Made by a program: the position numbers and the translations under genes. This document shows positions 13,324 through 62,287 of a DNA stretch of 64,000 nucleotides, piece by piece (positions within the stretch are counted from its first letter, which is position 1; each line of letters opens with the position of its first letter). The notes below the pieces were generated by a model. That model saw nothing but the letters and a program-made list of their open reading frames with translations, had not been told where the DNA came from and made no database searches. Origin of the DNA: Patescibacteria group bacterium (lineage in GTDB: Bacteria > Patescibacteriota > Patescibacteriia > JAXHNJ01); NCBI GenBank assembly GCA_041649715.1, contig JBAZMP010000001.1, positions 18,741 to 82,740 of the forward strand, given 5' to 3'.

Positions 13324-15516
13324 ATGGCTAAGGCAAAAACAAAAAAATTCGCCGTTTTATTATCTGTATTTGTAATTACTTTGCCGGTAATTACTTTTTT
13401 GTTTACGCCTTCGGTTTCCGCCAAAGATATCAGCCTGGATATTATCACGCGGGCGGAGTGGGAAGCGGATGAGAGCTGGCGCTTTAATTCAAAAAATCAG
13501 GAGATTTGGCCGGCCGAGTACGCCAAAGTGGAAAAAATCATTATTCACCACACGGCTGGTTCATTGGGCGGCGCTGACCCGGCGGCCATAATCCGCGGCA
13601 TTTATCACTGGCATGCCGTTTCTTTGGGCTGGGGCGACATCGGTTACAATTATCTGATAGATGAAAAAGGCAATGTCTACGAGGGCCGCTATGGCGGCGA
13701 CGGAGTGATGGGAGCGCACGCCTACAACGACAAAACCAACGCGGGTTACAACCGGGGCACGCTGGGGATCGCTATTTTGGGGAATTATCAGACTGACGTT
13801 TTGACGAACGCGGCCAAAGAAGCCCTGACGAATTTAATCGCCGTCAAGGCCCGCGATTTCGGCTTCGCCCCCGATGGCCGCAGTATTTTTAATGACGAGG
13901 ATCTGCTTAATCTTGTCGCTCACCGGGATATTGACAGCACCTTATGCCCGGGAAGAAATATCTATTCGCAGATGGATCAAATTCGGGAAAGCAGCCAGAT
14001 AAAATATAAGGGTTTGCCGGGCCTGCCGGCCGCCGACAAAGAGATGACCTATGTTGGACAAAGCGATGCGACTTTGACGCTCAGTCCGGGAGAAGAAAAA
14101 GAAATGTGGGTGGATTACCGTAATGACGGGCGCTCAACCTGGAAAAACTATGTAGCCAGTACGCCGTATTTGTCCGTTACGGAAACCAGCCCATTAAAAG
14201 CTTCAGATTGGCTTTCCGACACGCAAGCCGCGGGGCTTTCGACACCGAACGTGGCCAGCGGCCAAACCGGGCGGTTTGTCTTCAAGATCAAGGCCCCTAA
14301 CGATGAAATCCGTTTAGACCAAAGCTTTCGTATCATATGGGATGAAGAAGCAGTTCCTGGTACTTCCTTTAATCTTCATTTAGAAATAACCGGCTTTGAT
14401 TACGCGGCCAATGATTTAAAGCACGATATATTAAAGGCCACCTTTCCTAAGGTCACGAGGACGGTCACAATCAACTACCAGAATATCGGGTTAAAAACTT
14501 GGGCGAAAGACGATATTTATTTGGCCATCACGAACGAAAACGGCCGCCAAAGTTCCTATTATGATGCCGCTTGGCCAGACCAGGGAGGAAAGATCAGATT
14601 TAATGAAAGTGAAGTGAAAAGCCAAGGGCGAGCGACTTTTACCTTTAAAATGCATAGCCAGGGCGTTGACGCCTATAAGACCAAATTTTCTCTGAAAAAA
14701 TCCGACGGTACTACTCTGCCGGGCAGCGAAAAAATCGTGGCCACGCGTGTTGATTCCACTTATCAGGGCAAGATCGTTTCCCAAACGGTGCCGGTCGCCC
14801 TGCTTTCTAGTTGGCGGCCGACGGTGACCGTAAAGTTTGAAAACACCGGTTTATCAACCTGGGGAAAGAACATCGTGCTTAACGTGTATGACGGCGACTG
14901 GCGCAACAGCGCTTTTTCCCATCAGTCCTGGCCGACCGCTTGGGGACATTTTAATTTTCAGGAAACTCAAGTGAGGCCGGGCGAAACAGCCACCTTCCGG
15001 CTGACTCTTTATCCGCCCGCGCGGGCCGGCACATATTTTACCATTTTTAAACTGGAGAACACGACGTCGGTCAGTTTGCCCGTGCAAGGGGAGACTCGCC
15101 TGCTTATCCGGGTGGATGATGCCGGCTTGAAATTAGCGGAAAGCTATCAGGCGGAGTTTCTATCGGTTTCCGCCCCGCCCGCCTTGCGGCAGTATCAGCG
15201 CTTTACTAATGTCGTGAAAATAAAAAATACCGGCACGCAAACCTGGGGCAAGGACGTGGTTTTGAATATCTATGACGCGGACTGGCGGGAAACCTATTTC
15301 CGCGATGAATTGACCTGGCCGGCTTTCGAAGGCGGAATAACATTTTTAGAAGATCAGGTCCGGCCGGGCGAAACGGCCACTTTCCGTTTTATTTATCGGG
15401 CGCCGGTCAAAACCGGGCTTTACCGCAACCGGTTCATGCTTTCCATCGCCGGCCGGGAATATCTCGGGGTTCCCGGTTCGGAAAACTCAGCCTTGACCAG
15501 AGTTGATCCGATATAA
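13324..15516 (+). CDS. N-acetylmuramoyl-L-alanine amidase (PGRP/Amidase_2) with ~5 C-terminal Ig-like repeat modules
   Basis: 730 aa. IIHHTAGS...YHWHAVSLGWGDIGYNYLID amidase_2 signature. C-terminal repeats share WxxxxRPGETATFR with the SpoIID-like protein. Internal repeats are visible at the nucleotide level. Confidence 0.8.
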   Translation: MAKAKTKKFAVLLSVFVITLPVITFLFTPSVSAKDISLDIITRAEWEADESWRFNSKNQEIWPAEYAKVEKIIIHHTAGSLGGADPAAIIRGIYHWHAVSLGWGDIGYNYLIDEKGNVYEGRYGGDGVMGAHAYNDKTNAGYNRGTLGIAILGNYQTDVLTNAAKEALTNLIAVKARDFGFAPDGRSIFNDEDLLNLVAHRDIDSTLCPGRNIYSQMDQIRESSQIKYKGLPGLPAADKEMTYVGQSDATLTLSPGEEKEMWVDYRNDGRSTWKNYVASTPYLSVTETSPLKASDWLSDTQAAGLSTPNVASGQTGRFVFKIKAPNDEIRLDQSFRIIWDEEAVPGTSFNLHLEITGFDYAANDLKHDILKATFPKVTRTVTINYQNIGLKTWAKDDIYLAITNENGRQSSYYDAAWPDQGGKIRFNESEVKSQGRATFTFKMHSQGVDAYKTKFSLKKSDGTTLPGSEKIVATRVDSTYQGKIVSQTVPVALLSSWRPTVTVKFENTGLSTWGKNIVLNVYDGDWRNSAFSHQSWPTAWGHFNFQETQVRPGETATFRLTLYPPARAGTYFTIFKLENTTSVSLPVQGETRLLIRVDDAGLKLAESYQAEFLSVSAPPALRQYQRFTNVVKIKNTGTQTWGKDVVLNIYDADWRETYFRDELTWPAFEGGITFLEDQVRPGETATFRFIYRAPVKTGLYRNRFMLSIAGREYLGVPGSENSALTRVDPI

Positions 15517-15675: not shown

Positions 15676-15710
15676 TTGACAAGCAAGGAAAAGGGATATA
15701 AGTTATAGTA
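15676..15710 (+). promoter_or_regulatory. promoter TTGACA upstream of PheRS-like gene
   Basis: cctcTTGACAagcaaggaaaagggataTAAGTT. Confidence 0.35.
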
Positions 15711-15778
15711 TTCAGTTAAGAAGGCAAGATAAAAGAAGTAGTTCTTTAACAACCAAGATAGAAATGGAGGGTTTTATC

Positions 15779-16894
15779 ATGAAGAAAGAGATCATGCTGC
15801 CTGAGCGCCTGGCTGCGTCGTTGGCTATTTTGGACCTGACTGATCCAAAAAACGGCATCCATGCGATCAACTTAGTTGTGCAAAAAGTAAGACAGGCTTT
15901 AACAGTCGTCTACAAAGGCATTCCGGTTGAAGAGACCAGGAAAGATCCTATCGTCACCGTCAAAGAGAATTTTGATGACCTTCTTTTTCAAGAGGACAAT
16001 CTTGGTCGCTCTTCGCGCTATACGCGGTATGTGTCCGCGGATATGATTCTGCGAACGCATACCTCAGCGGCCGTTCCCGGCTGGCTGAATAAAGCGGTTC
16101 GCCAGGGAATCAACGATGCCATCATTGTCTTGCCCGGCATGTGTTACCGGAGAGATATCGTTGACAGGACGCATTGTGGAGAACCGCATCAGATGGATGT
16201 TTGGCGAGTAAAGCGCGGTGTTCCGCGGTTGGTACGTTCGGATTTAATCCGTTTGTTCGAGACTATTCTGAATAGCGTCGTACCGGAGTATCAGTATCGC
16301 GCTAATGATGTGGTGCATCCCTATACTGTTAACGGTCTTGAAATTGAGGTATTGGTGGACGGAAATTGGCTTGAAGTTCTTGAATGCGGCGAGATCCATC
16401 CTGCCATTCTGGGAAATGCCAATCTGGATCCGAGGGAGTATTCGGGTCTTGCCCTGGGCATGGGCTTGGATCGTCTCGTGATGATCATCAAAGGCATCGA
16501 TGATATCCGAGTCCTCCGTTCGGAAGACTCGCGTATTAAGCGCCAAATGGAAAACCTCGATAAGTACGTCAAGGTTTCTGATCAGCCAGCGGCTAAGCGG
16601 GTGCTTTCATACTCTACTTCAGCAGACAAGACAGAGGAGGATGTTTGTGAAGAAATCCGCGATGAACTCGGATTCGAGGCCTCATGCATTGAGGAGATTC
16701 AATATTCTGAGATTTTCTACGAGCAGTTGCCGGCAAAAGCACGCGAGAACTTAGGCATTCATCCTGATCAGAAGAATGTGGTCGTGACAATTTTGTTTCG
16801 TTCGCCAGAGGGCTCTCTTCAACGATCCATGGTTAACGAATGGATGCGACGTTTGTATCCGAAGCTAAACAAGGGGGACAGAGGATACATGTAA
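15779..16894 (+). CDS. monomeric (mitochondrial-type) phenylalanyl-tRNA synthetase-like protein: PheS-like class II core + C-terminal FDX-ACB anticodon-binding domain
   Basis: The ORF track starts at 15764, but GGAGGG lies 9 nt upstream of the ATG at 15779 (MKKEIM). Core motifs ILRTHTSAAV, GMCYRRDxxDRTH, WLEVLECGEIHPAIL, GLALGMGLDRLVMIIKGIDDIRVL closely match bacterial PheS. The ~130-aa C-terminal extension carries VVVTILFRSPEGSLQRSMVNEWMRRL, resembling the FDX-ACB domain. The HHPAR-equivalent reads NLGR. Confidence 0.65.
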   Translation: MKKEIMLPERLAASLAILDLTDPKNGIHAINLVVQKVRQALTVVYKGIPVEETRKDPIVTVKENFDDLLFQEDNLGRSSRYTRYVSADMILRTHTSAAVPGWLNKAVRQGINDAIIVLPGMCYRRDIVDRTHCGEPHQMDVWRVKRGVPRLVRSDLIRLFETILNSVVPEYQYRANDVVHPYTVNGLEIEVLVDGNWLEVLECGEIHPAILGNANLDPREYSGLALGMGLDRLVMIIKGIDDIRVLRSEDSRIKRQMENLDKYVKVSDQPAAKRVLSYSTSADKTEEDVCEEIRDELGFEASCIEEIQYSEIFYEQLPAKARENLGIHPDQKNVVVTILFRSPEGSLQRSMVNEWMRRLYPKLNKGDRGYM

Positions 16895-16996: not shown

Positions 16997-18445
16997 CTAG
17001 AAGACCGGAAATAACTCTACGTCACGTATGTCTTCCGTGTTGAGCAGAAGCATAAGGAGACGTTCTATTCCCATACCGATTCCTCGGCTCGGAGGAAGAC
17101 CGAATTTCATCGCACTTAATATGTCTTCGTTGATAACGTTGAGTTGAGTGCCTTTACGATAATTCAGCTGTTCTTTCATTCTTTGCCTTACAATGCCAGG
17201 ATCACGTTCCGGATTAACAATGTCGGCAACGAGCATTCCATTAATTACGAGAAGCGTTTCGTCAACGGTAGACATATCGTCGTTGAGTTTGTAAAGCGGG
17301 GATTGAGCGGCTGGTAGATTCCGGAGGAAGGCCGGCCCCGTGATTTTTGACATAACATAGGTATACAGGGCAGTTGCGATCGTATACTTGTTCACGACCG
17401 CCGGTAGCGGGATGCCCATTCTCATGGTCATGTTCGCGAGCAGTTCGATGGGACCATCCTCTTTATACACAAGACCCGTGTATTTTTGGATTTCGCCCCT
17501 AAAATCATAGGCAGGCCACTCATCGGAACAGTCAATCACTCCACCCGTTATCGGAAGTGTGGCAGAACCATAGAGTTGAACGAGGATTTCGCGTATCATG
17601 TCCCGCACCAGATCTTCCATTTTCTTCCGATCAGCGTACGCTTGGTACAGTTCCAAAATAGTGAATTGCGGGAGCATATCGGCCGTGGCGCCTTGATTTC
17701 GGAAGGATTTGCCGATTTCGAAAACCTTAGAAAAACCGGCAATCATTAACTTCCAAAGGAAAAGTTCAGATGTCACCCTGAGAAACATATCGTTGTCTGA
17801 TTCGACTACGTGCGTCACAAAAGGATCCGCTAGCCCTCCTTCAAAATTTTTCAGCAGTAGGGTTATGGGAGTTTCCTCATAACCCTTTTGGTGAAGAAAT
17901 TGCCTGATTGTCCGGATAACTAACGCGCATCTGCGAAAATGCAGCAGTTTTTCCGGATCCCTTATTAGTTGGAGATGCCTTTGGGTGTGCCAGTTTGTTT
18001 TCTTGTGGAAATCAACGTTAGTGTCGTATACATCGCCGACTGCCTTGGAGAGAAGTTCAATCTTTTTTCCGAGAAAAACAGGGTTGTTATCGACACGGAG
18101 TTTGGTCCCTTCAATCATCACAATATCACCGTAATGAATGGTCGTGTTTATGGTCCGGATATTTTCCGGTGTCCGCGTTAAATAAACCGGAATCGAAACC
18201 CCGTTACCCTCGATTCGCTCAAGGATGATGACGTCTTTTTTCTCAAGTTCTCCAAATAATCCGAACTTAGAAATTTCTCCTGTCCTGTCAGCGAGCATAA
18301 GCCTACCGACTAACACAATTTTCTCGCCGTAACCAACTGTGTGGAACTCTCCCGGTTCAATAGAAACTCTCGCCACCTCACGACGGTAAGCGAGAGCATC
18401 ATTGACGAGGGCATTCATCCTTTTTCTCTCACTTTTTCGAGCCAT
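16997..18445 (-). CDS. lysS: lysyl-tRNA synthetase, class II (divergent)
   Basis: 482 aa. N-terminal OB-fold region. Class IIb motifs FRNQGATADMLPQFTILELY and GMGIERLLMLL. Ends in a TAG stop. Promoter TTGACA-N17-TAAGTT on the minus strand at ~18519-18555. Confidence 0.7.
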   Translation of the reverse strand: MARKSERKRMNALVNDALAYRREVARVSIEPGEFHTVGYGEKIVLVGRLMLADRTGEISKFGLFGELEKKDVIILERIEGNGVSIPVYLTRTPENIRTINTTIHYGDIVMIEGTKLRVDNNPVFLGKKIELLSKAVGDVYDTNVDFHKKTNWHTQRHLQLIRDPEKLLHFRRCALVIRTIRQFLHQKGYEETPITLLLKNFEGGLADPFVTHVVESDNDMFLRVTSELFLWKLMIAGFSKVFEIGKSFRNQGATADMLPQFTILELYQAYADRKKMEDLVRDMIREILVQLYGSATLPITGGVIDCSDEWPAYDFRGEIQKYTGLVYKEDGPIELLANMTMRMGIPLPAVVNKYTIATALYTYVMSKITGPAFLRNLPAAQSPLYKLNDDMSTVDETLLVINGMLVADIVNPERDPGIVRQRMKEQLNYRKGTQLNVINEDILSAMKFGLPPSRGIGMGIERLLMLLLNTEDIRDVELFPVF

Positions 18446-18564
18446 GAGGCTAACCTCCTGTTATGGTTTTTGAATGTGCCGCAGAGAAATTTATTTTCTC
18501 TGTTTCTTGCCTTAACTTATACCGTTTTATCGAAAATGTCAAGGGTTACTCCAGAAAGCATTAT

Positions 18565-19101
18565 TTACCTTTTAAATACATCGTACTTAAAGTCCTTGTA
18601 GGTCATGGAAGGTCTTGGCCCCTTGCTGTTTTGATATTTGCCTTTGTATAAGATTATGTTTCCAAAGGGGACCCAGAAACTTACTTGAGCGATAAGAATG
18701 CCGGGATATAGGCGGACCGGAAGAGTGGCGTATAACTGAAATGTGGTTACTCCGTGAGAGCCTATATCGATCAAATCGGCCGTGACGTGCACAAAAAGGC
18801 CCATTCGAGCGGTGCCGGATTTACCGTGGATCAGCGGCACATAAAAATCACTCCCAATTCTTTCATTTGAATGGCCCAAGACAAACTCACCTTGTTTCAA
18901 AACCAAGCCGTCATTGGGGATTTTTATTTCTACGTAAGGAGTCTCAACTTTTGGGTCGATAATTTCGGCCTTATAGCGTATGATTGTTTCACCAAGAGAT
19001 AAATCGTAGGAATTAGTGGTCACGCGGTTTTCTATAAACGGGTTGATTTCAATTTTGCCGTTTTTCACCTCCTCAATAATTTTGTTTCCTGTTAATATCA
19101 T
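18565..19101 (-). CDS. dCTP deaminase-family protein (dUTPase-like fold), catalytic Glu replaced by Gln
   Basis: 178 aa. MILTGNKIIEEV...NPNSYDLSLG is a Dcd-like N-terminus. The conserved TLEL motif reads TFQL. Overlaps the upstream paralog by 29 nt. Confidence 0.7.
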   Translation of the reverse strand: MILTGNKIIEEVKNGKIEINPFIENRVTTNSYDLSLGETIIRYKAEIIDPKVETPYVEIKIPNDGLVLKQGEFVLGHSNERIGSDFYVPLIHGKSGTARMGLFVHVTADLIDIGSHGVTTFQLYATLPVRLYPGILIAQVSFWVPFGNIILYKGKYQNSKGPRPSMTYKDFKYDVFKR

Positions 19102-19612
19102 AATTTTTTTGATCGCCAGGCGTTAATGATTCTTGCGGGTGATTTAAAAACCCATAACGTCCGCAGTATTTCTTAAACAAACCGTAATTTTTCCAAAACG
19201 AAACTTGCCCGATAATCATCCCCGGGTATAATTTAATTGGTATGGTTGCGACCATTTCCAGAGTCCATTTATGCGTTGATGAGGTGTGGCCAAGATTTGC
19301 CGAGCATTGGAGAAAGAGGCCGTATCTTCCCAGAGAACTGCGACCAATGAGAGACATGGCATACTTCTGGCTGCCGATTACTTCGTAAGTTGTCGCCAAA
19401 TACATTTTTTTTGCCTCCAGGATATACCCTTCCCGGGGCATCTCAATCTCTTCAAAAAATGATTTATACCCATCAAATCTTTCAAAAACTTTCAATACGG
19501 GGCCGAGTCTGTAATTATAACTATTGGGATTAACTTGTTCGGTAGAAAAAGGTTTTATCGTAATATTGCCCCTTTTAACCTCGTCGTTAATTTTACTACC
19601 AGTGAGAATCAT
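19073..19612 (-). CDS. dCTP deaminase-family protein (catalytic Glu retained)
   Basis: 179 aa. MILTGSKINDEV...NPNSYNYRLG. WTLEM motif retains the catalytic Glu. Confidence 0.7.
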   Translation of the reverse strand: MILTGSKINDEVKRGNITIKPFSTEQVNPNSYNYRLGPVLKVFERFDGYKSFFEEIEMPREGYILEAKKMYLATTYEVIGSQKYAMSLIGRSSLGRYGLFLQCSANLGHTSSTHKWTLEMVATIPIKLYPGMIIGQVSFWKNYGLFKKYCGRYGFLNHPQESLTPGDQKNYDINRKQNY

Positions 19613-19617
19613 AAAGT

Positions 19618-20442
19618 TTAGAACAGTTCGGTAAAGCGGTTCGGGTATACTGTTTTTCTAAAGCGAAGAACTAACACGCTATATCTCTGGTAGGGTCGTA
19701 GATCATTCGACATTTTCTTCACCCCAAATAACCGGTCAAACATCGCCTGGCGCACTTTTTGATTCTTTATACTGTGCATGAGGCAGGCCCTCTCCGTTGT
19801 TGACTGGCAGTAACACCGGAGCTCATAATCGGTTTCCGGCACCAACGTATTACGATCCTCATAGATAATTTCAAACTTGTTAAATAGCGTCATTATTTCT
19901 TTGTATGTTTCATTTGTTGGTGTTATGTCAAAGACTTTCTGTGCTCGTTTGATAAGATGATTCGGGATTGTGCGGGTGACATAAAAAGGGGAAGCTAAAA
20001 TATATCCGCCATCATTGAGCATGCCGAGGCATCGGTTTATCATTTTTTCTGGGTTGGGAAAAAATTTCAGAGAAGCTCCAACTACTATGTGAGTAAATTT
20101 ACCGCGCGGTTTATAGCGGAAACCATCAGCTACCTTGTATATAAAATTTATTTTAGATGCGTAGTGTTTTTTATTGTAATTTGCCATTTCAATCGATTTC
20201 CTTGATAAGTCAAAACCTTCGCCCTGGCAACCCGTCAGCGTCGCTAATTCACGAGAGGAAAATCCGGTGCTGCAGGCAACCTCAAGCAAACGGGAATTTC
20301 GGTTCAAACGTGAGTAAACCGCCCATTTCGACAGGGTCGTATACGATCCGGGTAATACATTCCATTGATTGATGAAACCAACAAAGTCGGTGTAGGAAAA
20401 CTTTTTAATAGCCTCCGGTGTTATTTTTTGTCCGTTTTTCAT
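19618..20442 (-). CDS. class I SAM-dependent methyltransferase-fold protein
   Basis: 274 aa. Motif I LLEVACSTGFSS, acidic loop GFDLS. Start overlaps the upstream gene. Confidence 0.65.
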   Translation of the reverse strand: MKNGQKITPEAIKKFSYTDFVGFINQWNVLPGSYTTLSKWAVYSRLNRNSRLLEVACSTGFSSRELATLTGCQGEGFDLSRKSIEMANYNKKHYASKINFIYKVADGFRYKPRGKFTHIVVGASLKFFPNPEKMINRCLGMLNDGGYILASPFYVTRTIPNHLIKRAQKVFDITPTNETYKEIMTLFNKFEIIYEDRNTLVPETDYELRCYCQSTTERACLMHSIKNQKVRQAMFDRLFGVKKMSNDLRPYQRYSVLVLRFRKTVYPNRFTELF

Positions 20443-21697
20443 GTGTATATTTTAGACGATAAACCTTGGGGATGTTGTTTATAAATGTTTGCGCCAGTGA
20501 GTAAGTGAGCGCTCCCTGATTGGGTACGACGATAATATCCTTATCCCGCAGTTTTTTACCATAATAATAGTAACCCCATATATCCCATGTCGTGCACAGG
20601 TTGCCCCACATCTTGAATTTCCGTTCTCTTTTACTAGGATGAGAGAGATTTATTATAGGGAAATATTCAGTTTTGAATCTTTGCCAGCCGACCATATTGA
20701 CGCCACCGTTCAATATGCAATTCTTATCTTCCTTGATATCAGAAACACTTAATAGGATATGCATTGCCCCATTACAGATGTAACGACCGGGTTCAGATAG
20801 ATAGGTGGCATTGATTAACGGAGCTAGATATTTCTTGATGGCGTTACCGATGTTCTGAGCGTATTCTTCGATGGTGGAGGCTTGTCGTATTACATACTTT
20901 GGCCAACCCGATTTACTTTGCTTAATAATTCCTTCGTTCGCAGAAGATTCGAATCCGCCGCCGAAATCAATATATTTTATCTTGCCAAGCTGGTCGTCGG
21001 GAAAATTCCATTTTAAATAACTAGCCAAATCGCGGATTGTATCTCTGTAATAAGAACTGGTTTTGTTGCGAGATTGATGAAAATGGATGCCGTTTAAATC
21101 TAAAAAGGAATATCGGTTTGCCTCTTTCCAGAAATCCTTCAGTGATTTGAGGGGGATGCCGTATTTTGTCCAGTCCCCCTGTAAAGCCATATGGATACGA
21201 ACACCGCATTCAATTCTTTTTTTACGTTTATTCGCCAGCCGGCCTAGCCGTTTTAATTCATTGAAACTGTCTATATGGAGGCGTACTTTGTCGGCATGAT
21301 TCAGAGCCATTTTCAGATCATGGTAGCTTTTAGCCGGGCTGTAATAAACGATTTTTTTTGTCCCGGCTTTTAGTGCGATATTAAGTTCTCTGGCGCTCGC
21401 CACATCCAACCCCATGCCTCTTTTCACCGCCTCCCTGATGATATAGGGATGATGATTGAGTTTTAAGGCGTAATACGGCTGAAAATCCGGGATGTGTTTT
21501 TGGAAGGCGGTAATAAACGTTTTTATGTCTTTGTCCAGGGATTTTTGGTCATAAACATAAAAAGGTGTTTTATATTTATCGGCTAATTTAAAAAATTCAT
21601 TCCTCAGCAAAATAATTTTATTGACCACTGACAATATGTTTTTTGACACTGTATAGCGCGTCATTTTTCTAACCAGAAACGGCTTTATTAAAGACAA
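20405..21697 (-). CDS. PLP-dependent decarboxylase, fold III (Orn/DAP/Arg decarboxylase family)
   Basis: 430 aa. TPFYVYDQKSLDKDI..YALKLNHHPYIIREAVKRGMGLDVASARELNIALKAG matches the LysA/ODC N-terminal TIM barrel, including the PLP lysine. Confidence 0.75.
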   Translation of the reverse strand: MSLIKPFLVRKMTRYTVSKNILSVVNKIILLRNEFFKLADKYKTPFYVYDQKSLDKDIKTFITAFQKHIPDFQPYYALKLNHHPYIIREAVKRGMGLDVASARELNIALKAGTKKIVYYSPAKSYHDLKMALNHADKVRLHIDSFNELKRLGRLANKRKKRIECGVRIHMALQGDWTKYGIPLKSLKDFWKEANRYSFLDLNGIHFHQSRNKTSSYYRDTIRDLASYLKWNFPDDQLGKIKYIDFGGGFESSANEGIIKQSKSGWPKYVIRQASTIEEYAQNIGNAIKKYLAPLINATYLSEPGRYICNGAMHILLSVSDIKEDKNCILNGGVNMVGWQRFKTEYFPIINLSHPSKRERKFKMWGNLCTTWDIWGYYYYGKKLRDKDIIVVPNQGALTYSLAQTFINNIPKVYRLKYTHEKRTKNNTGGY

Positions 21698-22673
21698 TTT
21701 GGTCGTTGTTAAGTAATCCGGTCCCGCCGTTTGGGATAGTGATCATAGGATCGGAATGGCCAAAGTCAGCGTTATATAGGACAGGATACTGGACGCCAGA
21801 AAAATATCTATGCAACAATTCCTCGAATGAATCTTCCGGCGAGAATTGAGATTGCTCGGTAAAACGCCCGAACACTAAACCGGAGATTTTTTTGAACCAA
21901 CCGATTTGCTCGCCTTGGCATAAAAATCGGTCAACATGGGCCGGCGTGCTTGTTTCGTCTTCCTCGATAAAGAGAATTTTTCCGGTCATATCAGGCAGAT
22001 ATTCTGTGCCGTTCAGGATTAATAACGTCTGGAGGTTCCCGGCCACAATTTGTCCTTTCGCCTTCCCTTTTTTGAATATTATAATTCCCTCATTTTTCTT
22101 GTTAACCCGATGGTTATTGTCTTTCCTGATAAAATATAAGTCATCCGCATAATCAGGGGATGACTTAATAATTATTTTTTCTCTTGGAGTAATACAGATA
22201 TTATTCAAATAGTTCCAGCTATAGACAAATGGTTCCGGTTTGGCAAATGAAATCACGCACGGACCGGAAAACGTCACAAGGCCAGTTTTTTGAGTAATCG
22301 CAGTTGTTAAAGCGGTTACGTCCGAATAACCAATAAAGATTTTAGGGTGCATTTTGATCAGCTTGTAATCCAAGTGATCCAATAACTGGTTGGTATTAAA
22401 TCCGCCCCAGAAAGACATAATGCCGCCGACATCTTCCCGCTTTACGAAGTGATGAATATCATCGACGCGTAAAGAGATCGATCCGGCTGTATGCTTTTGG
22501 GTTAATTCTTTCATGGATTTGCCCTCTTCGATTTGAAATCCTTTCATTCGTAGATATTCATAGCCGCGCTGTATTACGTTTTCAGGACAGATACCTCTGA
22601 CCGGATCCGCCGGAGCGATAATCCCAATCTTTTTATTCTTATCCAGTTTTGGCGGTAGTATTCTCAGGCTCAT
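21669..22673 (-). CDS. peptidase S66 family (LD-carboxypeptidase / MccF-like)
   Basis: 334 aa. IGIIAPADP N-terminus. Nucleophile motif GYSDVTAL. C-terminal FGHSDP with a His. HVDRFL. Confidence 0.75.
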   Translation of the reverse strand: MSLRILPPKLDKNKKIGIIAPADPVRGICPENVIQRGYEYLRMKGFQIEEGKSMKELTQKHTAGSISLRVDDIHHFVKREDVGGIMSFWGGFNTNQLLDHLDYKLIKMHPKIFIGYSDVTALTTAITQKTGLVTFSGPCVISFAKPEPFVYSWNYLNNICITPREKIIIKSSPDYADDLYFIRKDNNHRVNKKNEGIIIFKKGKAKGQIVAGNLQTLLILNGTEYLPDMTGKILFIEEDETSTPAHVDRFLCQGEQIGWFKKISGLVFGRFTEQSQFSPEDSFEELLHRYFSGVQYPVLYNADFGHSDPMITIPNGGTGLLNNDQIVFNKAVSG

Positions 22674-22909
22674 AATTATTATATTACGGGATAAAATTAA
22701 GATATTTATACGGTTAAACTATTTAAATTATACATCTTTGGTGGATAAAAATCAAAAATATTGAAGATTTTTTCACGCAGTTTTTTGAAGGAAGCAATCC
22801 TTTGAAGGGGTAAGCCCGTACGACCGTTGTCGCCGTTTATTCTTAGACGGCGAATTTTTTATTCCATAAAAAAACTAGCCTTTGATACGGCCAGTTTTTT
22901 TATTGAGAA

Positions 22910-23512
22910 TTATTGTTCTTTATTTATTCTTTCCTCAAATTCATTGGTGATTTCCACCACTCTTTCATCGTCAGCCACGCCTCTTAGCTCTCCGACTAGT
23001 TCTAGCACCTTCGCTTTTTTTTCTTCATCAGTAAAATCCTTTTTATCTAAAGTAACCAGGTTTAGGCCCACCTGCGCTTCTAAGTGGCGCAAATCTTGTT
23101 CGTTGTGGCCGGGTTTTCCCCAACCGTCGATCACTCTCTCGATTAAACTGATCGTTTGGTCGATTTGGTCCGCTTTGTTTTCCCTGGTTTTTTCCCGCTT
23201 CAGGAGTTTTTTATCCGGTTTCAGGCCAAATCTTTCTTTTAATTGGTGGATGATTTTCGGTATTCTTTTGTCGTCAGCCACTTTCTCCAATTTATCAACT
23301 AAGCCGAAGACCTCTTCTTTTCTTTCGTCAGTTAAATCCCCCTCTTTTAAGACCGCGAGATTCAAGCCCGTTTCCGCTTCCATCCGGCGCAATTCTGCTT
23401 CGTTGTTGTCTGGTTTTTCCCAGCCTGTGACCGTTTGTTCAAGAAGGCCGACCGTCTGTTCGATCTGCCAGCTTTTGGCCGCTTCTTGGTTTGGTTCGCC
23501 TTCAATGCCCAT
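22910..23512 (-). CDS. hypothetical protein with two tandem ~95-aa internal repeats
   Basis: 200 aa, charged composition. Repeat 1 IEQTVGLLEQTVTGWEKPDNNEAELRRMEAETGLNLAVL... Repeat 2 IDQTISLIERVIDGWGKPGHNEQDLRHLEAQVGLNLVTL... The opposite-strand ORF 22827..23516 is Ser/Leu low-complexity and judged a shadow. Confidence 0.5.
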   Translation of the reverse strand: MGIEGEPNQEAAKSWQIEQTVGLLEQTVTGWEKPDNNEAELRRMEAETGLNLAVLKEGDLTDERKEEVFGLVDKLEKVADDKRIPKIIHQLKERFGLKPDKKLLKREKTRENKADQIDQTISLIERVIDGWGKPGHNEQDLRHLEAQVGLNLVTLDKKDFTDEEKKAKVLELVGELRGVADDERVVEITNEFEERINKEQ

Positions 23513-24167: not shown

Positions 24168-25205
24168 TCATTTTCTTGTTATTTGGACAATCCCGTTATT
24201 TCCGTCCACTTTAACTAGGTCGTTATCTGTTATGAATTTCGTCGCTATTTTAGTGCTAATGACACAGGGTGTCTTGAGCTCTCGGGAAACGATCGCGGCG
24301 TGACAGGTGATTCCTCCCTCATCAGTGACAATACCGGCCGCTCGTCTCAAAGCGACCATCATATCGGCGGTTGTCATGGGCGTGATCAGAATATCGCCTT
24401 TTTTTACCTTGTTTAAATCAGAGAGTTCAAAAACGACTCTTGCTTTTCCTTGCGCTTTGCCGCGGCAGGCGGATTGACCCTTGATTATATCGGCATCAAT
24501 CTTTTCCTTAGTGTTGTCTTTTAAAATAATATCATTATCCGTTAAGTATTTCTTGATATTTAAATATATTTTACCCCGATGAAATAAGTAGCCATGTGTT
24601 CTTCTGGCGAGTTCATTCTTCGAAGGAAAACTTTTAGTCTTTTCGCTGGGCAATAAATAAGGGAAATATTTTGGAGGAATACGATTTTTTTGTCCTAATT
24701 CGAGGTAAGTAATGTTTGACAGATAGGTCATAGCCGGATGAAGTATGCCTTCGCTTTCCACCCTGATGGTAAAGCATGTTTTTCTTAATTTTTGACTGAC
24801 TTTGAAAATTTTGGTACCGCCAAAAATATTAGAGAGGGCAATAATAGGCCAGATTTCCTGAATCAAAAAATACAACCTATTTGAATTTTTCAGCCTTTTA
24901 GTGATAATCGATTTTATTTCCCGGCGATAGATATCAAATTTCACCTTTCTTTTGATAAACAGTGAAATATTATTTTCTAAATAATTAAATATCGGTTCCA
25001 AGCCTTGTTTTGGGTCAGAAAAATTATAATAGATAGAAATTCCTTTCTGCGGGTGATATATAAATAGCGGATCAAAAAAAATAAGATTATCAAATTGTCG
25101 AGGTAGGGCTAATCTTTCGCCCCTATCCCAGCAATCACAGGCGATTAAATCCATTGGTCTGGCCATGATTTTTCGGAATTCTTGTTTTCGCAAGTGTTTT
25201 TTCAT
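24168..25205 (-). CDS. PEP-utilizing-enzyme swivel (phosphohistidine) domain protein, paralog 5
   Basis: 345 aa. C-terminal GKARVVFELSDLNKVKKGDILITPMTTADMMVALRRAAGIVTDEGGITCHAAIVSREL (PF00391-like). Variable N-terminal half. Confidence 0.7.
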   Translation of the reverse strand: MKKHLRKQEFRKIMARPMDLIACDCWDRGERLALPRQFDNLIFFDPLFIYHPQKGISIYYNFSDPKQGLEPIFNYLENNISLFIKRKVKFDIYRREIKSIITKRLKNSNRLYFLIQEIWPIIALSNIFGGTKIFKVSQKLRKTCFTIRVESEGILHPAMTYLSNITYLELGQKNRIPPKYFPYLLPSEKTKSFPSKNELARRTHGYLFHRGKIYLNIKKYLTDNDIILKDNTKEKIDADIIKGQSACRGKAQGKARVVFELSDLNKVKKGDILITPMTTADMMVALRRAAGIVTDEGGITCHAAIVSRELKTPCVISTKIATKFITDNDLVKVDGNNGIVQITRK

Positions 25206-25253
25206 TTTAAGATTCAGAGAGTAGTAATCGGTCTTGTTTGGATAATATATATT

Positions 25254-26453
25254 TTATTTCCTTCCCGATTTTTTGATAATTTGAGCCACTCCTTTATAGG
25301 CGTTTACTTGTACCAAATCGCCGTTTTTTAAAATTTGAGTCGCATTTTTTGTCCCCACGAGGCAGGGTTTTTTCAGTTCGCGTGAGATTATGGCCGCATG
25401 GCAAGTTATGCCGCCTTCGTCCGTAATAATCGCACCAGCATTCTTAAGAAAGGGAGTCATTTGCGGATTGGTCATGCTCGTGACTAAAATATTGCCCTTT
25501 TTCACCGCCGTGGTGCCGCTCCAGGATAAGTGAATTATTACCTTACCAGTGGCAAGACCGGGGTAGGCGATATCGCCCCTGATTTTGCGGTTATCAATTT
25601 TTCGAAGTTTATTTTGCCAATAAATGAATTTGTTACCGGTATATAAATTCCATGCCCCATCTTTTTTGATAAAAACGCAGCCCTTTAACCTTTTTCTTAA
25701 CTCCCCCGTAGATACTGTTATTTCATCAGTGATAGCCTTTTCTACTTCCTCCTTTCTCATGGCGCTAGCAAGATTAATCGATAGCTTGGTTTTTTTGGCA
25801 ATATATTTTGTGAAAGAGTCATCAGTGACGTATGTTTCCGAGTCTTTATGTAGCTGTAATTTGATCTCTCCCATTCGTCCTAGCCTTTTCACGTATTTTT
25901 TTACTTGACCATTAGTGATTTCGTTTATTTTATGCGTAGATAAAATTTTAACCAATGCGTTTCTTGATGTTAATTTAAGAAGCTTAGCTTCAACTGCCTG
26001 CGAGAATGGCGGTTCGTAAAATCGGTATAATTTGCAGAATTTATCGTTTAACCGCAGAGATTTTTTCCATTCGGCTAGAACGTTTTTTGAATTAAGCCGT
26101 GGTTTTTTGTAGTTTTTAAGCTGGACGCTTAAATTTTTGGATTTGGCAATTAAAGAAGCGGAGAATTTGTCATTTAATAATCGGGAGCCCAAATAACGGC
26201 ATTGTTTTATGCTTAAGGGTGACAAATAGGCCCTAGTGATGTTGTTTTCGCGCAAAACGATAAAATCAACCTCGCCGTAAGTTTCATTGTTGTTAAAAAT
26301 CATGTCCAGGGTAAGAATATTGAACCCGGAATTAGAAAAATGAAGACTATATCTTTTGGCGTCTTGATTATTTTTTTGAGAGCGCATTTTATAAAGTAGT
26401 AATCGGTCTCGATTGGACAATATACATTTTATTTTTTTCGTAGGCCCATTCAA
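25254..26453 (-). CDS. PEP-utilizing-enzyme swivel domain protein, paralog 4
   Basis: 399 aa. C-terminal ...ILVTSMTNPQMTPFLKNAGAIITDEGGITCHAAIISREL. Confidence 0.7.
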   Translation of the reverse strand: MNGPTKKIKCILSNRDRLLLYKMRSQKNNQDAKRYSLHFSNSGFNILTLDMIFNNNETYGEVDFIVLRENNITRAYLSPLSIKQCRYLGSRLLNDKFSASLIAKSKNLSVQLKNYKKPRLNSKNVLAEWKKSLRLNDKFCKLYRFYEPPFSQAVEAKLLKLTSRNALVKILSTHKINEITNGQVKKYVKRLGRMGEIKLQLHKDSETYVTDDSFTKYIAKKTKLSINLASAMRKEEVEKAITDEITVSTGELRKRLKGCVFIKKDGAWNLYTGNKFIYWQNKLRKIDNRKIRGDIAYPGLATGKVIIHLSWSGTTAVKKGNILVTSMTNPQMTPFLKNAGAIITDEGGITCHAAIISRELKKPCLVGTKNATQILKNGDLVQVNAYKGVAQIIKKSGRK

Positions 26454-27327
26454 TATCCTGCGGTATGCCGTAGTGTTTTTCGATTTTTTGGCAGAGTTTA
26501 GCCAGGGATATTATTTGTTTGTCGCCAAGCTTTTGTTTTTCTTGCTGGCTGGCCGGCACAGATTTGTTCATATTTCCAGAGGGACCTTTAACAATCATTT
26601 TTCCCTGCTGACTGATGCTTTTTTCCTTGAGGGCAAAATTCTTTTTATCGATAATATAGGTGTCGGGAGTAATAATACCCCCGACGATCGCTTCGCCCAG
26701 GCCGTAGCCGGCTTCAATCACGATTTGGCCCCGATCTTTAGTCACTGGGTGGGCGGTGAAACAAATACCCGAGATTTCTGAATTAATCATTTTTTGGACG
26801 ACCACGGCGACTGCCACTTTTGTTTTACGCAGTTTTTTCTCAAAGCGGTAGGAGATGGCGCGGGGCGTAAATAGCGACGCCCAGCATTTTTTGACGCTGG
26901 TCAGCAGGTTTTTATTATCCACGTTGAGATAACTTTCTAATTCGCCGGCCCAGGAAGCAACGGAGGAATCTTCGGCGGTAGCGGAACTGCGCACCGCTAC
27001 ATATTTAGCCTTAAGATTTAAGAATTCTTTTTGTATTTCGCCTTTCATCTCCGGCGGAAATTCAAGCTTTAAAATTAAACCCCTGATTTTATCCGACGCT
27101 TGATTAACTGAATTAATATTTTTTAGGTTGATCTTATTTAACAAAGCTTCAATTTTCGTCCCCAGTTGGTTTTTTTCCACGAACTGGTCAAAAGCCGAAG
27201 CCAAAACGACAAAACCGGGAGGGACGGGAATGCCAGCCTGCGTCATTTCGCCTAAAGAAGCGCCCTTGCCGCCGGCAATGGCGGCGTCATTTTTGCCTAA
27301 ATATTGAAAATTTTTAACAAAGGCCAT
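26389..27327 (-). CDS. pyruvate phosphate dikinase/PEP synthase N-terminal ATP-grasp (PPDK_N) domain protein, stand-alone
   Basis: 312 aa. GGKGASLGEMTQAGIPVPPGFVV, VAVRSSATAEDSSVASWAGELESYLNV, EWAYEKNKMYIVQSRPIT. Matches the nucleotide-binding domain of PpsA/PPDK/RPH and lacks a swivel domain. Confidence 0.75.
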   Translation of the reverse strand: MAFVKNFQYLGKNDAAIAGGKGASLGEMTQAGIPVPPGFVVLASAFDQFVEKNQLGTKIEALLNKINLKNINSVNQASDKIRGLILKLEFPPEMKGEIQKEFLNLKAKYVAVRSSATAEDSSVASWAGELESYLNVDNKNLLTSVKKCWASLFTPRAISYRFEKKLRKTKVAVAVVVQKMINSEISGICFTAHPVTKDRGQIVIEAGYGLGEAIVGGIITPDTYIIDKKNFALKEKSISQQGKMIVKGPSGNMNKSVPASQQEKQKLGDKQIISLAKLCQKIEKHYGIPQDIEWAYEKNKMYIVQSRPITTL

Positions 27328-27328
27328 A

Positions 27329-28801
27329 TTATTTTGCCTTTTTAATTATTTTTACCAATCCATGATTAGCGTTTACGTCAATTAAATCTCCATCTGCCAG
27401 AGATCTTGTGGCGATCTGAGTCCCGGTAATGCAGGGGATATTTAATTCTCTGGAGACAATGGCGGCGTGACAGGTAATTCCGCCTTCATCCGTGATGACC
27501 GCCGCCGCCTTTTTCATAATTGAGACATATTCGGGGCGGGTCATAGAGGCCACAATCACGTCGCCGTTGTCCATTTTAGAAAAATCCTTTTGGTTTAGAA
27601 TAATCTTCGCGATACCAATAACTTTTCCGGGCGAGACGGTTGTTCCCCTGATTTCTGAAGCGGCAATGGTTTTTTCCAGAATTTCAAAGTATTCCTCGGC
27701 GATTGAACCAGAAACGACTTCAAGTTTCGTGGTTTTTCCCGCAAAAACAATGAGACCAATGTTAGCTCTTTTTTTAAGCTCGGCAATCGTTTTTTTATCG
27801 CGTTTTATAATCAGGGGTATTTCATCGGGGACAGCATATTTTAGAAGGTCGATGCCAATCCCAATTTCTTTTGATATTTTTTCAATTATTTCAATAAATA
27901 CATAATTGGCTATCTGGTTGTATTTTTTGCGATCATCGCGATACGTAGTTACCCAATTAAAAAAGTTTAAGAATCGTAAAGTATTTCCGCTTATGGCGTA
28001 TTTATTAATCAAGGCGTTTTTGTTTTTCTTTACTTCTTCAAATTTTTCCAGCCCGTTTATTATACTCTTTACTTCCGCCTGATTTTTTACTAATTCTTTT
28101 AACTTTTTGGAAAAATATTTTTCATCGAGATACTCCGCCTTTTCATAATCATTCTTAAGCCAGTAATAATTGTCAGAATGTTTATTGATTAATTTTTTAA
28201 CTTCAGGCGAGTCAATGCCTTTTTCTTTGGCAATTTTATAAATACTTGAAAGGTCTTTTTGCTCTTTCTGCAAATTGGATAGTTCATCCGGGCTTAGCAG
28301 CGTATTTACATCATTCTTGTCTAGTTTTTCTTTGGTAGGGCCGAAAATAAAATCAATAATTTGGCTTTCGAAAGGATCCAGCAAGTCGATGTATAATGAA
28401 TTTTCCCAAAATTTCATATTCCATTCTAAAAATGACTCGTATTCTTTAATAAAAGATCGTGAAATGACTTTGTTTTTGAGGATAGCGAGCCCTGTTTTTT
28501 CTATTTCTTTGGCCGCGAGATAACAATCATTTTTCAGAGTTTTGAAGAAATCATTATTATTTTTGAGCCGGACAAATATCTTTTTTACCTGCTCGAGCGT
28601 TAAAAAATAATCGAAATAATGATAAAAGGTAAAACCGGTTTTTGTTTTGAGAAAAGTGCCTAAATCATTGGGGAAATAAAAACCCGATTTTTTAAACATC
28701 CTTTCGGAAAGGGCTAAAAAAGGCATCCCGCAACATAAAGGAATTCCTGCCCCGGATTGTCGGTACCACTTGATCGTTTTTACCTTTTTTTTCGTAAGCA
28801 T
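27329..28801 (-). CDS. PEP-utilizing-enzyme swivel domain protein, paralog 3
   Basis: 490 aa. C-terminal ...VIVASMTRPEYVSIMKKAAAVITDEGGITCHAAIVSRELNIPCI. N-terminal ~380 aa is paralog-specific. Confidence 0.7.
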   Translation of the reverse strand: MLTKKKVKTIKWYRQSGAGIPLCCGMPFLALSERMFKKSGFYFPNDLGTFLKTKTGFTFYHYFDYFLTLEQVKKIFVRLKNNNDFFKTLKNDCYLAAKEIEKTGLAILKNKVISRSFIKEYESFLEWNMKFWENSLYIDLLDPFESQIIDFIFGPTKEKLDKNDVNTLLSPDELSNLQKEQKDLSSIYKIAKEKGIDSPEVKKLINKHSDNYYWLKNDYEKAEYLDEKYFSKKLKELVKNQAEVKSIINGLEKFEEVKKNKNALINKYAISGNTLRFLNFFNWVTTYRDDRKKYNQIANYVFIEIIEKISKEIGIGIDLLKYAVPDEIPLIIKRDKKTIAELKKRANIGLIVFAGKTTKLEVVSGSIAEEYFEILEKTIAASEIRGTTVSPGKVIGIAKIILNQKDFSKMDNGDVIVASMTRPEYVSIMKKAAAVITDEGGITCHAAIVSRELNIPCITGTQIATRSLADGDLIDVNANHGLVKIIKKAK

Positions 28802-28817
28802 AAATTGGCTTGTTATA

Positions 28818-30320: not shown

Positions 30321-31119
30321 AAGATTCGGCTAGTTCTTCAAGCTTGTCCATATCTACGCTATATTCTTGTCCGCGGAAATTAACGGATAATTTCTTTTCG
30401 CCCTTTTCGTCAATATTGAGGGAAAATTCCATGCCCTCGGCAAAATTAAGCGCGCCCCCGATTTCTTCCAGCTTTTCGAAACCGGTAATTTCCCTATCCT
30501 TATCTTTTCTGATCAAGATCTCTTTTAACAGCGCTTCGGGCAGGCCCTGGTGCGTCACATTAACTAGGTCGATATTTGAACCGGAATACAGTCTTTTCGC
30601 CATTCGTGAATATCGATTTAGAACATAGGCTAAAGACTCGGCCACTTCATGGGGCGATAAAGTATCTGGGTCGGGTCTTTCTTTGCCGAAGTTTAAATAC
30701 CAATCGGTGGCCGTGTCGGGATCATTTTTTGCCAACTCATTAAATTTTTTCATGAATTCCTCGGATAAAGGCGGCATGCCTATTTCGGCCCTAATTCGGG
30801 TATTTAACTTTTTATCGTGCGGTGCTCCTTCGATAACTTTTTCTACGGTTTCCAGCGCTCTTTTTACCGGACTGGAATAGCCCTTGATCGCGTCTCTTTT
30901 TTCCAGATCTTCTCCAAATTTAGTAGCTTGTTGTTTGCCTTCTTCTGTTAAAGTTCCGGTTAGATCTTTTGCTCCGTGCCGCATAAAAAATACATGCATT
31001 TCGACATTACTTCCAAATCGGTTTTCCGGTGTTTCTAGATGACTGATTCGTGGCTCATTTTCCATATTTTTATATTTACAATTGCTCAAATTTTTCAGCC
31101 GCCAGCTTTTTGAATTCAT
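30310..31119 (-). CDS. histidine phosphatase superfamily protein (phosphoglycerate-mutase-like)
   Basis: 269 aa. FFMRHGAKDLTGTLTEEGKQQA carries the RHG catalytic motif. Confidence 0.6.
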   Translation of the reverse strand: MNSKSWRLKNLSNCKYKNMENEPRISHLETPENRFGSNVEMHVFFMRHGAKDLTGTLTEEGKQQATKFGEDLEKRDAIKGYSSPVKRALETVEKVIEGAPHDKKLNTRIRAEIGMPPLSEEFMKKFNELAKNDPDTATDWYLNFGKERPDPDTLSPHEVAESLAYVLNRYSRMAKRLYSGSNIDLVNVTHQGLPEALLKEILIRKDKDREITGFEKLEEIGGALNFAEGMEFSLNIDEKGEKKLSVNFRGQEYSVDMDKLEELAESYEK

Positions 31120-31666: not shown

Positions 31667-31670
31667 AAAA

Positions 31671-40051: not shown

Positions 40052-40127
40052 TGGTGCGCCTGGGGGGATTCGAACCACCGACCTTCCGCTTATAAGGCGG
40101 ATGCTCTAACCATTGAGCTACAGGCGC
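40052..40127 (-). tRNA. tRNA with anticodon TAT (tRNA-Ile(UAU)-like), CCA encoded
   Basis: gcgcctg/tagctcaatggttagagc/tccgc-cttataa-gcgga/T-arm ggtgg-ttcgaat-ccccc (one U:C mismatch)/caggcgc-a-cca. Confidence 0.7.
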
Positions 40128-62072: not shown

Positions 62073-62287
62073 ACGAAATCAATTAAACATACTTTAGCAA
62101 GTGGTGGAGAAATGAAAGGAGGATGTTTGAGGACCAGCATGTTCTTTTTATAAAATAACAGCTGATGTATCCTATCTTCTCCTTTCATTCTTCCATCACT
62201 TGTGTAAAGTCAACAAAATTTTTCACTTTTTGAAAAGTTTACCGCGAGCTATTGAGTGGCTTGCGTTTAATCTTTTCAAATTTTACT

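Follow-up and report, generated by a model that had tools for sequence, protein, structure and literature searches.

A candidate biosynthesis and immunity cluster for an aminoacyl-nucleotide synthetase inhibitor in a Patescibacteria genome

The window analyzed here, a stretch of 64,000 nucleotides (nt) from a Patescibacteria group bacterium (GTDB lineage Patescibacteriia, JAXHNJ01; assembly GCA_041649715.1, contig JBAZMP010000001.1, forward-strand positions 18,741 to 82,740), holds between 15.7 and 22.8 kb a block of genes for relatives of microcin C tailoring and immunity enzymes, two proteins of the deoxycytidine triphosphate (dCTP) deaminase fold (hereafter DCDa and DCDb) and two proteins related to aminoacyl-tRNA synthetases. 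A first-pass annotation had listed five minus-strand open reading frames (ORFs) with their coordinates; all of them were recovered exactly, and searches of Pfam and NCBIfam upheld their family assignments. From upstream to downstream these are an MccF-like S66 serine peptidase of 334 amino acids (aa) with the Pfam S66 N- and C-terminal domains (21669..22673), a fold-III pyridoxal phosphate (PLP)-dependent decarboxylase (20405..21697, 430 aa if read from a TTG start or 419 aa from the likelier ATG at 21664), an MccD-family S-adenosylmethionine (SAM)-dependent transferase of 274 aa with a class I methyltransferase fold (19618..20442), and the two paralogs DCDa (179 aa, 19073..19612) and DCDb (178 aa, 18565..19101). 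When the longest ORFs are considered, three junctions overlap (29, 38, and 29 nt) as had been described, while the fourth is a gap of 5 nt. The low GC content ascribed to these genes is real but modest (0.39–0.42 vs. 0.451 for the window), and the 10 kb further upstream are equally low.

The span of five genes proved too short. A promoter-like site, TTGATT-17-TATAAT, lies on the minus strand upstream of the S66 gene (22727..22755; 10 of 12 consensus positions, a consensus match only), no terminator was seen after DCDb, and the gene for a 482-aa paralog derived from lysyl-tRNA synthetase (LysRS), with an OB-like N-terminal domain and a class II core, follows 119 nt downstream on the same strand (16997..18445). 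Because the transcription unit runs from this promoter-like site (22755–22727) to a GC-rich hairpin terminator on the minus strand (16988–16963; 11 pairs, 9 of them G-C), it takes in the LysRS-like gene. The unit has six to seven genes in full. The hairpin separates the LysRS-like gene from a convergent one, SrmL (15764..16894, plus strand; likely start at 15779, giving 371 aa), which encodes a monomeric PheRS-like protein with an FDX-ACB-like C-terminal domain. Each of the two synthetase-like genes is preceded by the promoter-like motif TTGACA-N15-TATAAGTTA, at 18513..18542 (minus strand, internal to the unit) for the LysRS-like gene and at 15676..15705 (plus strand) for SrmL, and these are the only two copies in the 64 kb window. 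A minus-strand gene directly upstream of the operon (22910–23512) encodes an acidic 200-aa protein with two internal repeats (WEKPDNNEAELRRMEAETGLNL... and WGKPGHNEQDLRHLEAQVGLNL...), for which Pfam, NCBIfam, and PADLOC searches gave no family match; an antisense ORF of 229 aa overlaps it, and it was not kept beside the block in the other loci compared.

The methyltransferase-fold protein matched the Pfam families Methyltransf_31, Methyltransf_25, and Methyltransf_11 at ~1e-9, and a profile test favored the MccD-like identity proposed for it, as its best match in the PDB was MccD (5fcd, E 2.6e-27, residues 2–259 against 4–264), with the next PDB match at 3e-4. It aligned with E. coli MccD (query sequence from an mcc plasmid) at 29% identity over the full length (E 2e-32) and with AgnB1 of the agrocin 84 cluster at 23% identity (E 4e-23), and 442 relatives were found at 60–80% identity; by these comparisons the protein is specifically MccD-like. 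The S66 protein (Peptidase_S66 1e-32, S66C 3e-30) likewise groups with MccF and not with the peptidoglycan enzyme LdcA. Its top PDB matches were the MccF-like BA_5613 and Lmo1638 (1e-58, 200 bits), MccF scored 148 bits against 59–99 bits for LdcA-type chains, E-values ranged from 1e-58 to 1e-42 for MccF and MccF-like proteins vs. 1e-27 to 1e-15 for LdcA, and the NCBIfam equivalog model of LdcA was matched at 116 bits with a cut-off of 378. At 33% identity to E. coli MccF, the catalytic triad is kept (Ser117/Glu237/His306 aligned to MccF Ser118/Glu243/His311), in agreement with the MccF-like reading given to this gene at the outset, and the S66 peptidase of the agrocin 84 cluster is 30% identical (E 5e-39).

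For the decarboxylase, only part of the initial description stood. The fold-III PLP family (Orn_Arg_deC_N 4e-32), the PLP-binding lysine K79, and the GGG, EPGR, and C..D motifs are all present, and the protein falls below the cut-off of the LysA equivalog TIGR01048 (141 vs. 297.9 bits). The specific likeness to the N-terminal domain (NTD) of MccE did not hold: the two share 20% identity over 181 aa (49 bits, E 2e-10), the nearest solved structures are LysA and ornithine decarboxylase (ODC; 1e-19, 60–73 bits), and the enzyme is no closer to MccE-NTD than to these other fold-III enzymes.

A scan of one genome per GTDB species, followed by ORF calling, phmmer searches, and clustering, recovered 67 related loci (designated by L numbers), and families were counted over 60 of them, the ORF calls in high-GC loci (Streptomyces, Burkholderia) being approximate. 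The MccD-like gene was present in 60 loci, DCD genes in 56, the S66 peptidase in 40, a very divergent truncated alanyl-tRNA synthetase (AlaRS) core of ~380 aa in 38, the fold-III decarboxylase in 22, the LysRS-like paralog in 10 (L003 and L066 with weak or distant matches), a full-length LeuRS in 10, and SrmL in 8. The MccD-like gene, DCDa, and DCDb form a fixed module in ~55 loci, which usually sits with an S66 peptidase and a synthetase-derived protein. DCDa is followed by DCDb in 54 of 55 informative loci (median overlap 4 nt) and the MccD-like gene by DCDa in 47 (median gap 2 nt), a recurring order which argues that the arrangement is not due to chance. The decarboxylase and MccD-like genes, adjacent and overlapping in the window, adjoin each other directly in loci of the window type and in several others, and lie within 8 kb of each other in 22 of 60 loci.

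The tandem Dcd-like pair noted in the first-pass annotation was confirmed, as both proteins belong to PF22769 (DCDa 4e-28, DCDb 2e-33). Both are far from canonical Dcd, and on the Dcd model TIGR02274 DCDa scores 63.6 bits and DCDb 93.2 (cut-off 92.8). In alignments of 52 DCDa and 54 DCDb sequences (numbered after M. tuberculosis Dcd:dut), the deaminase glutamate Glu129 is kept in every DCDa, while the same position in DCDb holds Gln (43/54) or Met (11/54). Conversely, Asp119, which we take to be the catalytic motif-3 aspartate of dUTPases, is kept in 53 of 54 DCDb sequences and is His or Gln in all 52 of DCDa. His112 and Asp33, retained in DCDb, are Gln and Asn, respectively, in DCDa, the C-terminal Lys/Tyr lid is kept in DCDb, and Ser102, Arg106, Ala115, and Gln148 are conserved in both. 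The Dut aspartate is documented, and Ala115 is known to line the uracil pocket (PMC5519681). Neither chain possesses a complete active site, and the losses are complementary. The fold and the nucleotide-binding motifs are those of the bifunctional dCTP deaminase:dUTPases (M. tuberculosis Dcd:dut, M. jannaschii DCD-DUT), but the known enzymes are homotrimers or hexamers with all catalytic residues in one chain, whereas here the residues are split over two co-translated paralogs, the glutamate only in DCDa, the aspartate and histidine only in DCDb.

The LysRS-like gene had been suspected to be an insensitive copy of an antibiotic target, a view replaced here by that of a dedicated paralog in which the ATP/Mg site is dismantled and the fold retained. 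The protein stays below the cut-offs of both lysine-tRNA ligase models (264 vs. 468 bits and 222 vs. 428 bits), its motif 2 loop reads MLPQF where LysRS has HNPEF, and a family-invariant stretch, DETLLVINGMLVADIVNPERDP, replaces the LysRS segment that provides the Mg-binding glutamates and the lysine pocket. Its relatives form a discrete clade of ~75 clusters, with scores dropping from 362 to 206 bits at canonical LysRS; no member carries the anticodon-binding domain PF01336, which canonical LysRS does, and NCBI names the members 'amino acid--tRNA ligase-related protein'. An AlphaFold2 model (mean predicted local distance difference test score 74) showed an N-terminal OB-like barrel and a class II core that superposes on full-length LysRS. 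A biosynthetic role is the more likely one.

Two other synthetase relatives accompany the module elsewhere. The AlaRS-core-like profile matches an N-terminal fragment of AlaRS at E 1e-73; AgnC1 and AgnA of the agrocin 84 cluster were considered as specific relatives of this family and rejected (hhalign probabilities of 0.3% and 5.8%). LeuRS (818 bits on TIGR00396) lies within 8 kb of the module in 10 of 60 loci (chance probability ~1e-6), and since these copies are only ~35% identical to each other, even when Burkholderia, Roseateles, and Pseudomonas are compared, they are not housekeeping orthologues. One pair departs from this level: the LeuRS of a Firmicutes MAG (metagenome-assembled genome; UBA5010, L056:16201-18627) and that of a Saccharibacteria MAG (L060:7510-9921) are 67% identical, which reflects either a recent cross-phylum transfer or a binning error.

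SrmL is a member of the NCBIfam family NF051887, 'PheS-related mystery ligase SrmL' (407.8 bits, equivalog cut-off 300). The database version of the protein is also 371 aa long, and the arginines of motifs 2 and 3 are kept. It is convergent with the LysRS-like gene in 6 of 8 window-type loci, the remaining two lacking SrmL or ending before it. What is new here for this family is its genomic context, an aminoacyl-nucleotide-type block and related islands elsewhere. Immediately upstream of SrmL, five window-type loci (L006:14680-14928, L010, L012, L014, and L017) encode a conserved protein of ~80 aa (...SSSPSAA.EM.F....D..KAKAGRWLAVLRRDY...), which was not retained as a part of the block, being absent from the window. 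Other Patescibacteria carry SrmL in different synthetase-rich islands (L075, L076, and L077, at 9001-10125 in each), among S51 and S66 peptidases, GNAT and NUDIX proteins, duplicated GlyRS-, PheRS-, MetRS-, and TrpRS-like genes, radical SAM enzymes, a carbamoyltransferase, and ABC exporters; several of these families are known to confer resistance to microcin C.

In loci of the window type (L001, L006–L014, and L017), the S66 peptidase, decarboxylase, MccD-like, DCDa, DCDb, and LysRS-like genes recur, mostly followed by the convergent SrmL, and because this block is constant while its flanks differ, it moves as a unit. A large serine recombinase with Resolvase, Recombinase, and zinc-ribbon domains adjoins the module in five loci (L012:15688-17040, L018, L021, L036, and L037), which suggests that the module travels on an integrative element. 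Window-type blocks at 66–71% identity were also found in MAGs labelled as Gammaproteobacteria, Bacteroidetes, Hyphomicrobium, Thermodesulfobacteriota, and Thermotogota (L006, L007, L010, L013, and L017); these five contigs are most likely mis-binned Patescibacteria contigs.

The carriers of the module include many Patescibacteria lineages and DPANN archaea (Woesearchaeota, Nanoarchaeota/Nanobdellota), as well as the cultured Paenibacillus baekrokdamisoli, Burkholderia lata, Pseudomonas batumici, Photorhabdus viridis, Facilibium subflavum, and three Streptomyces. In the cultured genomes its neighbors are MFS and ABC exporters, ATP-grasp proteins, AMP-ligases, a carbamoyltransferase, extra methyltransferases, an aldo-keto reductase, a glyoxalase, and a P450, surroundings that look like natural-product clusters. 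No homologue of MccB/ThiF (E <= 1e-3) was detected among the ORFs of the window or of 70+ related loci, extending the absence of MccB already remarked upon, and an MccB-dependent microcin C-like RiPP (a peptide made by the ribosome and modified post-translationally) was rejected on this ground, although a gene for a 7-residue precursor peptide is something that sequence alone cannot exclude. No relatives were present in 2.9 million viral contigs, and an origin in phage or DNA hypermodification was discarded. A role in anti-phage defence was dropped as well, since the PADLOC search returned no defence-system match for the block, the sole match being a generic methyltransferase domain (mad2, 42 bits). 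The only plasmid matches of note besides mccD were to pAgK84-type plasmids.

Among characterized systems, the mcc operon offers the first point of comparison. In microcin C maturation, a carboxypropyl group is transferred from SAM to the phosphate of the phosphoramidate and then decarboxylated, and MccF cuts the aminoacyl-nucleotide amide (PMC8323819, PMC10491745), the chemistry of MccD and MccE-NTD being summarised in PMC10491745 with the order of steps left open. The window shares with this operon an MccD homologue, a fold-III PLP decarboxylase beside it, and an MccF-clade S66 peptidase. Unlike mcc, it has neither an MccA peptide nor MccB/ThiF, the MccC pump and the MccE acetyltransferase domain were not seen among the block genes, the decarboxylase is a separate protein that shares only its fold with MccE-NTD, and two DCD-fold and the synthetase-derived proteins are added.

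The agn cluster of pAgK84 is at least as close an analogue and has the closest architecture. There, AgnB1, a homologue of MccD, is flanked by AgnA, a synthetase-like protein of class II annotated as 'asparagine synthetase A', and by AgnB2, a LeuRS that serves as immunity gene, with an S66 peptidase homologous to that of the window downstream. Agrocin 84 is a nucleotide phosphoramidate that mimics leucyl-adenylate, AgnA is the candidate P-N bond-forming enzyme, and AgnB2 confers self-immunity (PMC8323819). LeuRS accompanies the module in 10 related loci, though not in the window. The agn cluster differs in having no DCD-fold genes but two NUDIX proteins and many further tailoring genes, the latter absent from the window block; the match of AgnA to the LysRS-like protein is confined to the region around motif 3, and agrocin 84 itself bears no aminopropyl group.

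A third precedent concerns the synthetase-derived proteins. AcmF is a truncated AlaRS, with aminoacylation and tRNA-recognition domains, that lacks the residues for ATP and alanine activation, carries a D232E change, and acylates dealanylascamycin at its sulfamate NH2 with Ala-tRNA as donor, and SbzA, from the SB-203208 pathway, is an IleRS copy that does likewise with Ile-tRNA; both are synthetase paralogs in which amino-acid activation is lost or nearly lost and which acylate the NH2 of a nucleoside-type warhead (PMC12945691). The AlaRS-core-like family of the module is truncated in the same way and has Glu at the position of this Asp-to-Glu change, and the LysRS-like protein of the window has an analogous loss of ATP/Mg residues, with the difference that it derives from LysRS and not from AlaRS or IleRS, and that no sulfamate pathway genes accompany it.

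On balance, we hold it to be somewhat probable that this horizontally mobile block makes and decorates, and shields its host from, an inhibitor of aminoacyl-tRNA synthetases, an aminopropylated aminoacyl-pyrimidine nucleotide, and we propose that this product belongs to the class of aminoacyl-adenylate mimics that comprises the microcin C warhead, agrocin 84/TM84, and ascamycin. We infer the following chemistry for it. DCDa and DCDb would first form a hetero-oligomer that takes (deoxy)cytidine triphosphate and delivers the pyrimidine nucleotide part, the heteromer, its substrate, and its product all being putative. By analogy with AcmF and SbzA, the LysRS-derived protein would then transfer an aminoacyl group, probably from aminoacyl-tRNA, onto an amino group of the nucleotide, a task that would fall to the truncated AlaRS core in most other loci. 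The MccD-like enzyme would move 3-amino-3-carboxypropyl from SAM and the decarboxylase would convert it to aminopropyl, as MccD and MccE-NTD do on the phosphate of microcin C; homology and adjacency of the two genes are observed, and the chemistry is predicted. Going by its likeness to MccF and its intact triad, the S66 peptidase would cleave the amide bond of the aminoacyl-nucleotide, either for self-immunity or for maturation. Finally, SrmL, apparently an active monomeric PheRS-like enzyme, would serve as a dedicated tRNA charger or as an insensitive synthetase copy, and the LeuRS copies linked to the module in other loci would act like AgnB2.

Several observations weigh against this proposal. 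The window block itself has no exporter, the decarboxylase is missing from most loci, and as AgnB1 is an MccD homologue whose product carries no aminopropyl group, membership in the MccD family is no proof of carboxypropyl over methyl transfer. Identities of 60–80% across candidate phyla with genomes of ~0.6 Mb are unusual for secondary metabolism, and such a high conservation in small genomes could point to a cellular function. The role given to the DCD pair, which would act as a complex and on the product rather than on the deoxynucleoside triphosphate pool, is the weakest link.

A more specific version of the chemistry can be drawn, which we regard as speculative and rather improbable, and in which the DCD pair would be the P-N bond-forming enzyme, making a nucleoside phosphoramidate with the ammonia of its own deamination reaction. 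DCDa would deaminate (d)CTP, and in the composite active site of DCDb this ammonia would replace water and attack the alpha-phosphate, yielding a pyrimidine nucleoside 5'-phosphoramidate. The LysRS-like or AlaRS-like protein, dead with respect to ATP, would acylate that NH2 from aminoacyl-tRNA, and aminopropylation of the phosphate would be the work of the MccD-like enzyme and the decarboxylase. If true, N-acyl-phosphoramidate synthetase inhibitors would be reached by a route that needs no MccB, in which swapping the synthetase-derived module could change the amino acid of the warhead (Lys-, Ala-, or Leu-type), and which would be used by ultra-small Patescibacteria and DPANN archaea as well as by culturable producers.

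The alternative to a biosynthesis and immunity cluster that fares best, though we find it unlikely, is that of a resistance island in an organism that is not itself a producer, where the block detoxifies or bypasses aminoacyl-nucleotide antibiotics made by others through an MccF-like hydrolase, spare synthetase copies, and nucleotide-modifying enzymes that inactivate the drug. MccF homologues do occur alone as resistance genes (according to PDB names), and elsewhere in Patescibacteria SrmL lies beside the microcin C resistance families S66, S51 peptidase (PMC9239234), and GNAT, with NUDIX proteins and duplicated synthetases also nearby. MccD-type enzymes, however, are known only as biosynthetic, potency-raising tailoring enzymes (PMC8323819, PMC10491745). 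The LysRS-like protein appears catalytically unable to stand in for LysRS, and the adenylating enzymes, carbamoyltransferase, and exporters in the versions from cultured genomes point to synthesis.

A slightly less credible role, which we consider quite unlikely, is a cellular one in nucleic-acid or nucleotide modification, by which an aminocarboxypropyl or aminopropyl group would be placed on a pyrimidine of DNA, tRNA, or a nucleotide cofactor, with the synthetase-like proteins as tRNA-binding modules. The strong sequence conservation in minimal genomes and the tRNA-binding-type domains kept in the synthetase-derived proteins would fit such a role, and phage DNA hypermodification pathways use the DCD fold. 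Nevertheless, the viral contig collection gave no relative and the defence-system search no match, no tRNA gene was found beside the module in 33 loci, and a patchy, mobile distribution with a serine recombinase alongside, in the company of exporters, divergent LeuRS copies, and S66 amidases, speaks against it.

Very improbable, and set aside on family cut-offs, active-site residues, and synteny, is a salvage route for peptidoglycan and lysine next to housekeeping pyrimidine metabolism, the clustering being incidental in a reduced genome. In that scheme, meso-diaminopimelate released by an LD-carboxypeptidase is turned by LysA into lysine for charging by LysRS, with the Dcd genes supplying dUMP for thymidylate, all of which is compatible with the fold assignments alone and with the cell-wall amidase nearby (13324-15516) or the D-Ala-D-Ala ligase or transglycosylase genes beside some related loci. 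The S66 protein, though, is nearer to MccF than to LdcA, the decarboxylase stays below the LysA cut-off, the LysRS-like protein is without the ATP/Mg residues and sits in a clade of its own, neither DCD active site is complete, the MccD-like gene is left unexplained, and large genomes carry the same module beside exporters and extra LeuRS genes. The first-pass annotation had named canonical LysA, an ordinary methyltransferase, and synteny with lysine or peptidoglycan genes as signs against its own interpretation; what was found instead is conserved synteny with MccD-like and DCD genes. A cassette for expanding the genetic code, with a non-canonical amino acid made by the pathway and loaded by SrmL or the LysRS-like protein onto two amber-suppressor tRNAs at 54.5 kb, deserves hardly any credence, for although two tandem tRNA(CUA) genes do occur in the same window and SrmL is an intact enzyme of the monomeric PheRS/PylRS class without an assigned function, these tRNAs lie at a distance of 36 kb in unrelated housekeeping surroundings, no tRNA(CUA) was found near the module or SrmL in 33 related loci, TAG is still a stop codon, including in two genes of the block, and the DCD and S66 genes would be given no role.

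The two tRNA(CUA) genes, amber suppressors by their anticodon, are located at 54552-54627 and 54650-54724 on the plus strand, between a response-regulator gene and smc and not in a prophage context. Both have an encoded CCA end, a U73 discriminator, and Rfam tRNA scores of 69–70 bits, with identical D and anticodon arms and differing acceptor and T arms. TAG ends 5 of the 51 long ORFs in the window, and read-through of all five would add 1–16 codons only. A link between the block and these tRNAs was rejected, as no tRNAs occur near the module in 33 loci. Further upstream of the operon, an eight-gene minus-strand array (24168-33098) includes a stand-alone PPDK_N ATP-binding protein (26389-27327), five proteins of 345–500 aa with differing N-terminal regions and a C-terminal phosphoenolpyruvate (PEP)-utilizer phosphohistidine 'swivel' domain, a histidine phosphatase, and an HD-domain protein, and looks like a split, multi-substrate kinase system of the PEP-synthase/rifampicin-phosphotransferase type. 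It was not accepted as specifically related to the similar split pair in the agn cluster, the similarity being at the domain level only. The window also carries a tRNA-Ile with anticodon UAU (40052-40127, minus strand), found in a related Patescibacteria locus too (L012:2181-2255), and a complete bacterial 16S rRNA gene (62283-63772, plus strand; Rfam 1410 bits), which could place the organism precisely within Patescibacteria.

We rate the block as belonging with the aminoacyl-nucleotide synthetase-inhibitor clusters, with new core enzymes and an unexpected host range. The full-text literature searched held no description of the MccD-like/DCD/DCD module or of this context of SrmL, but its coverage of subscription journals is partial and this absence is no proof of novelty. 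If the biosynthetic interpretation is true, the module marks a family of aminoacyl-nucleotide 'adenylate-mimic' antibiotics that is very widespread and has gone unrecognised, only a handful of such natural products being known (microcin C, agrocin 84, albomycin, and ascamycin), and since culturable producers are among the carriers, isolation of the product would be feasible. Enzymology would gain a putative split heteromer of the dCTP deaminase/dUTPase fold and a LysRS-derived enzyme without an ATP site, the 'mystery ligase' SrmL gains its first functional context, and for AgnB1 a role is suggested in agrocin 84 synthesis, a pathway still unsolved. Secondary metabolism is generally held to be absent from the reduced genomes of Patescibacteria and DPANN archaea; were the interpretation to hold, these organisms would carry such a cluster and exchange it between domains, with a bearing on the interactions of these episymbionts with hosts and competitors.

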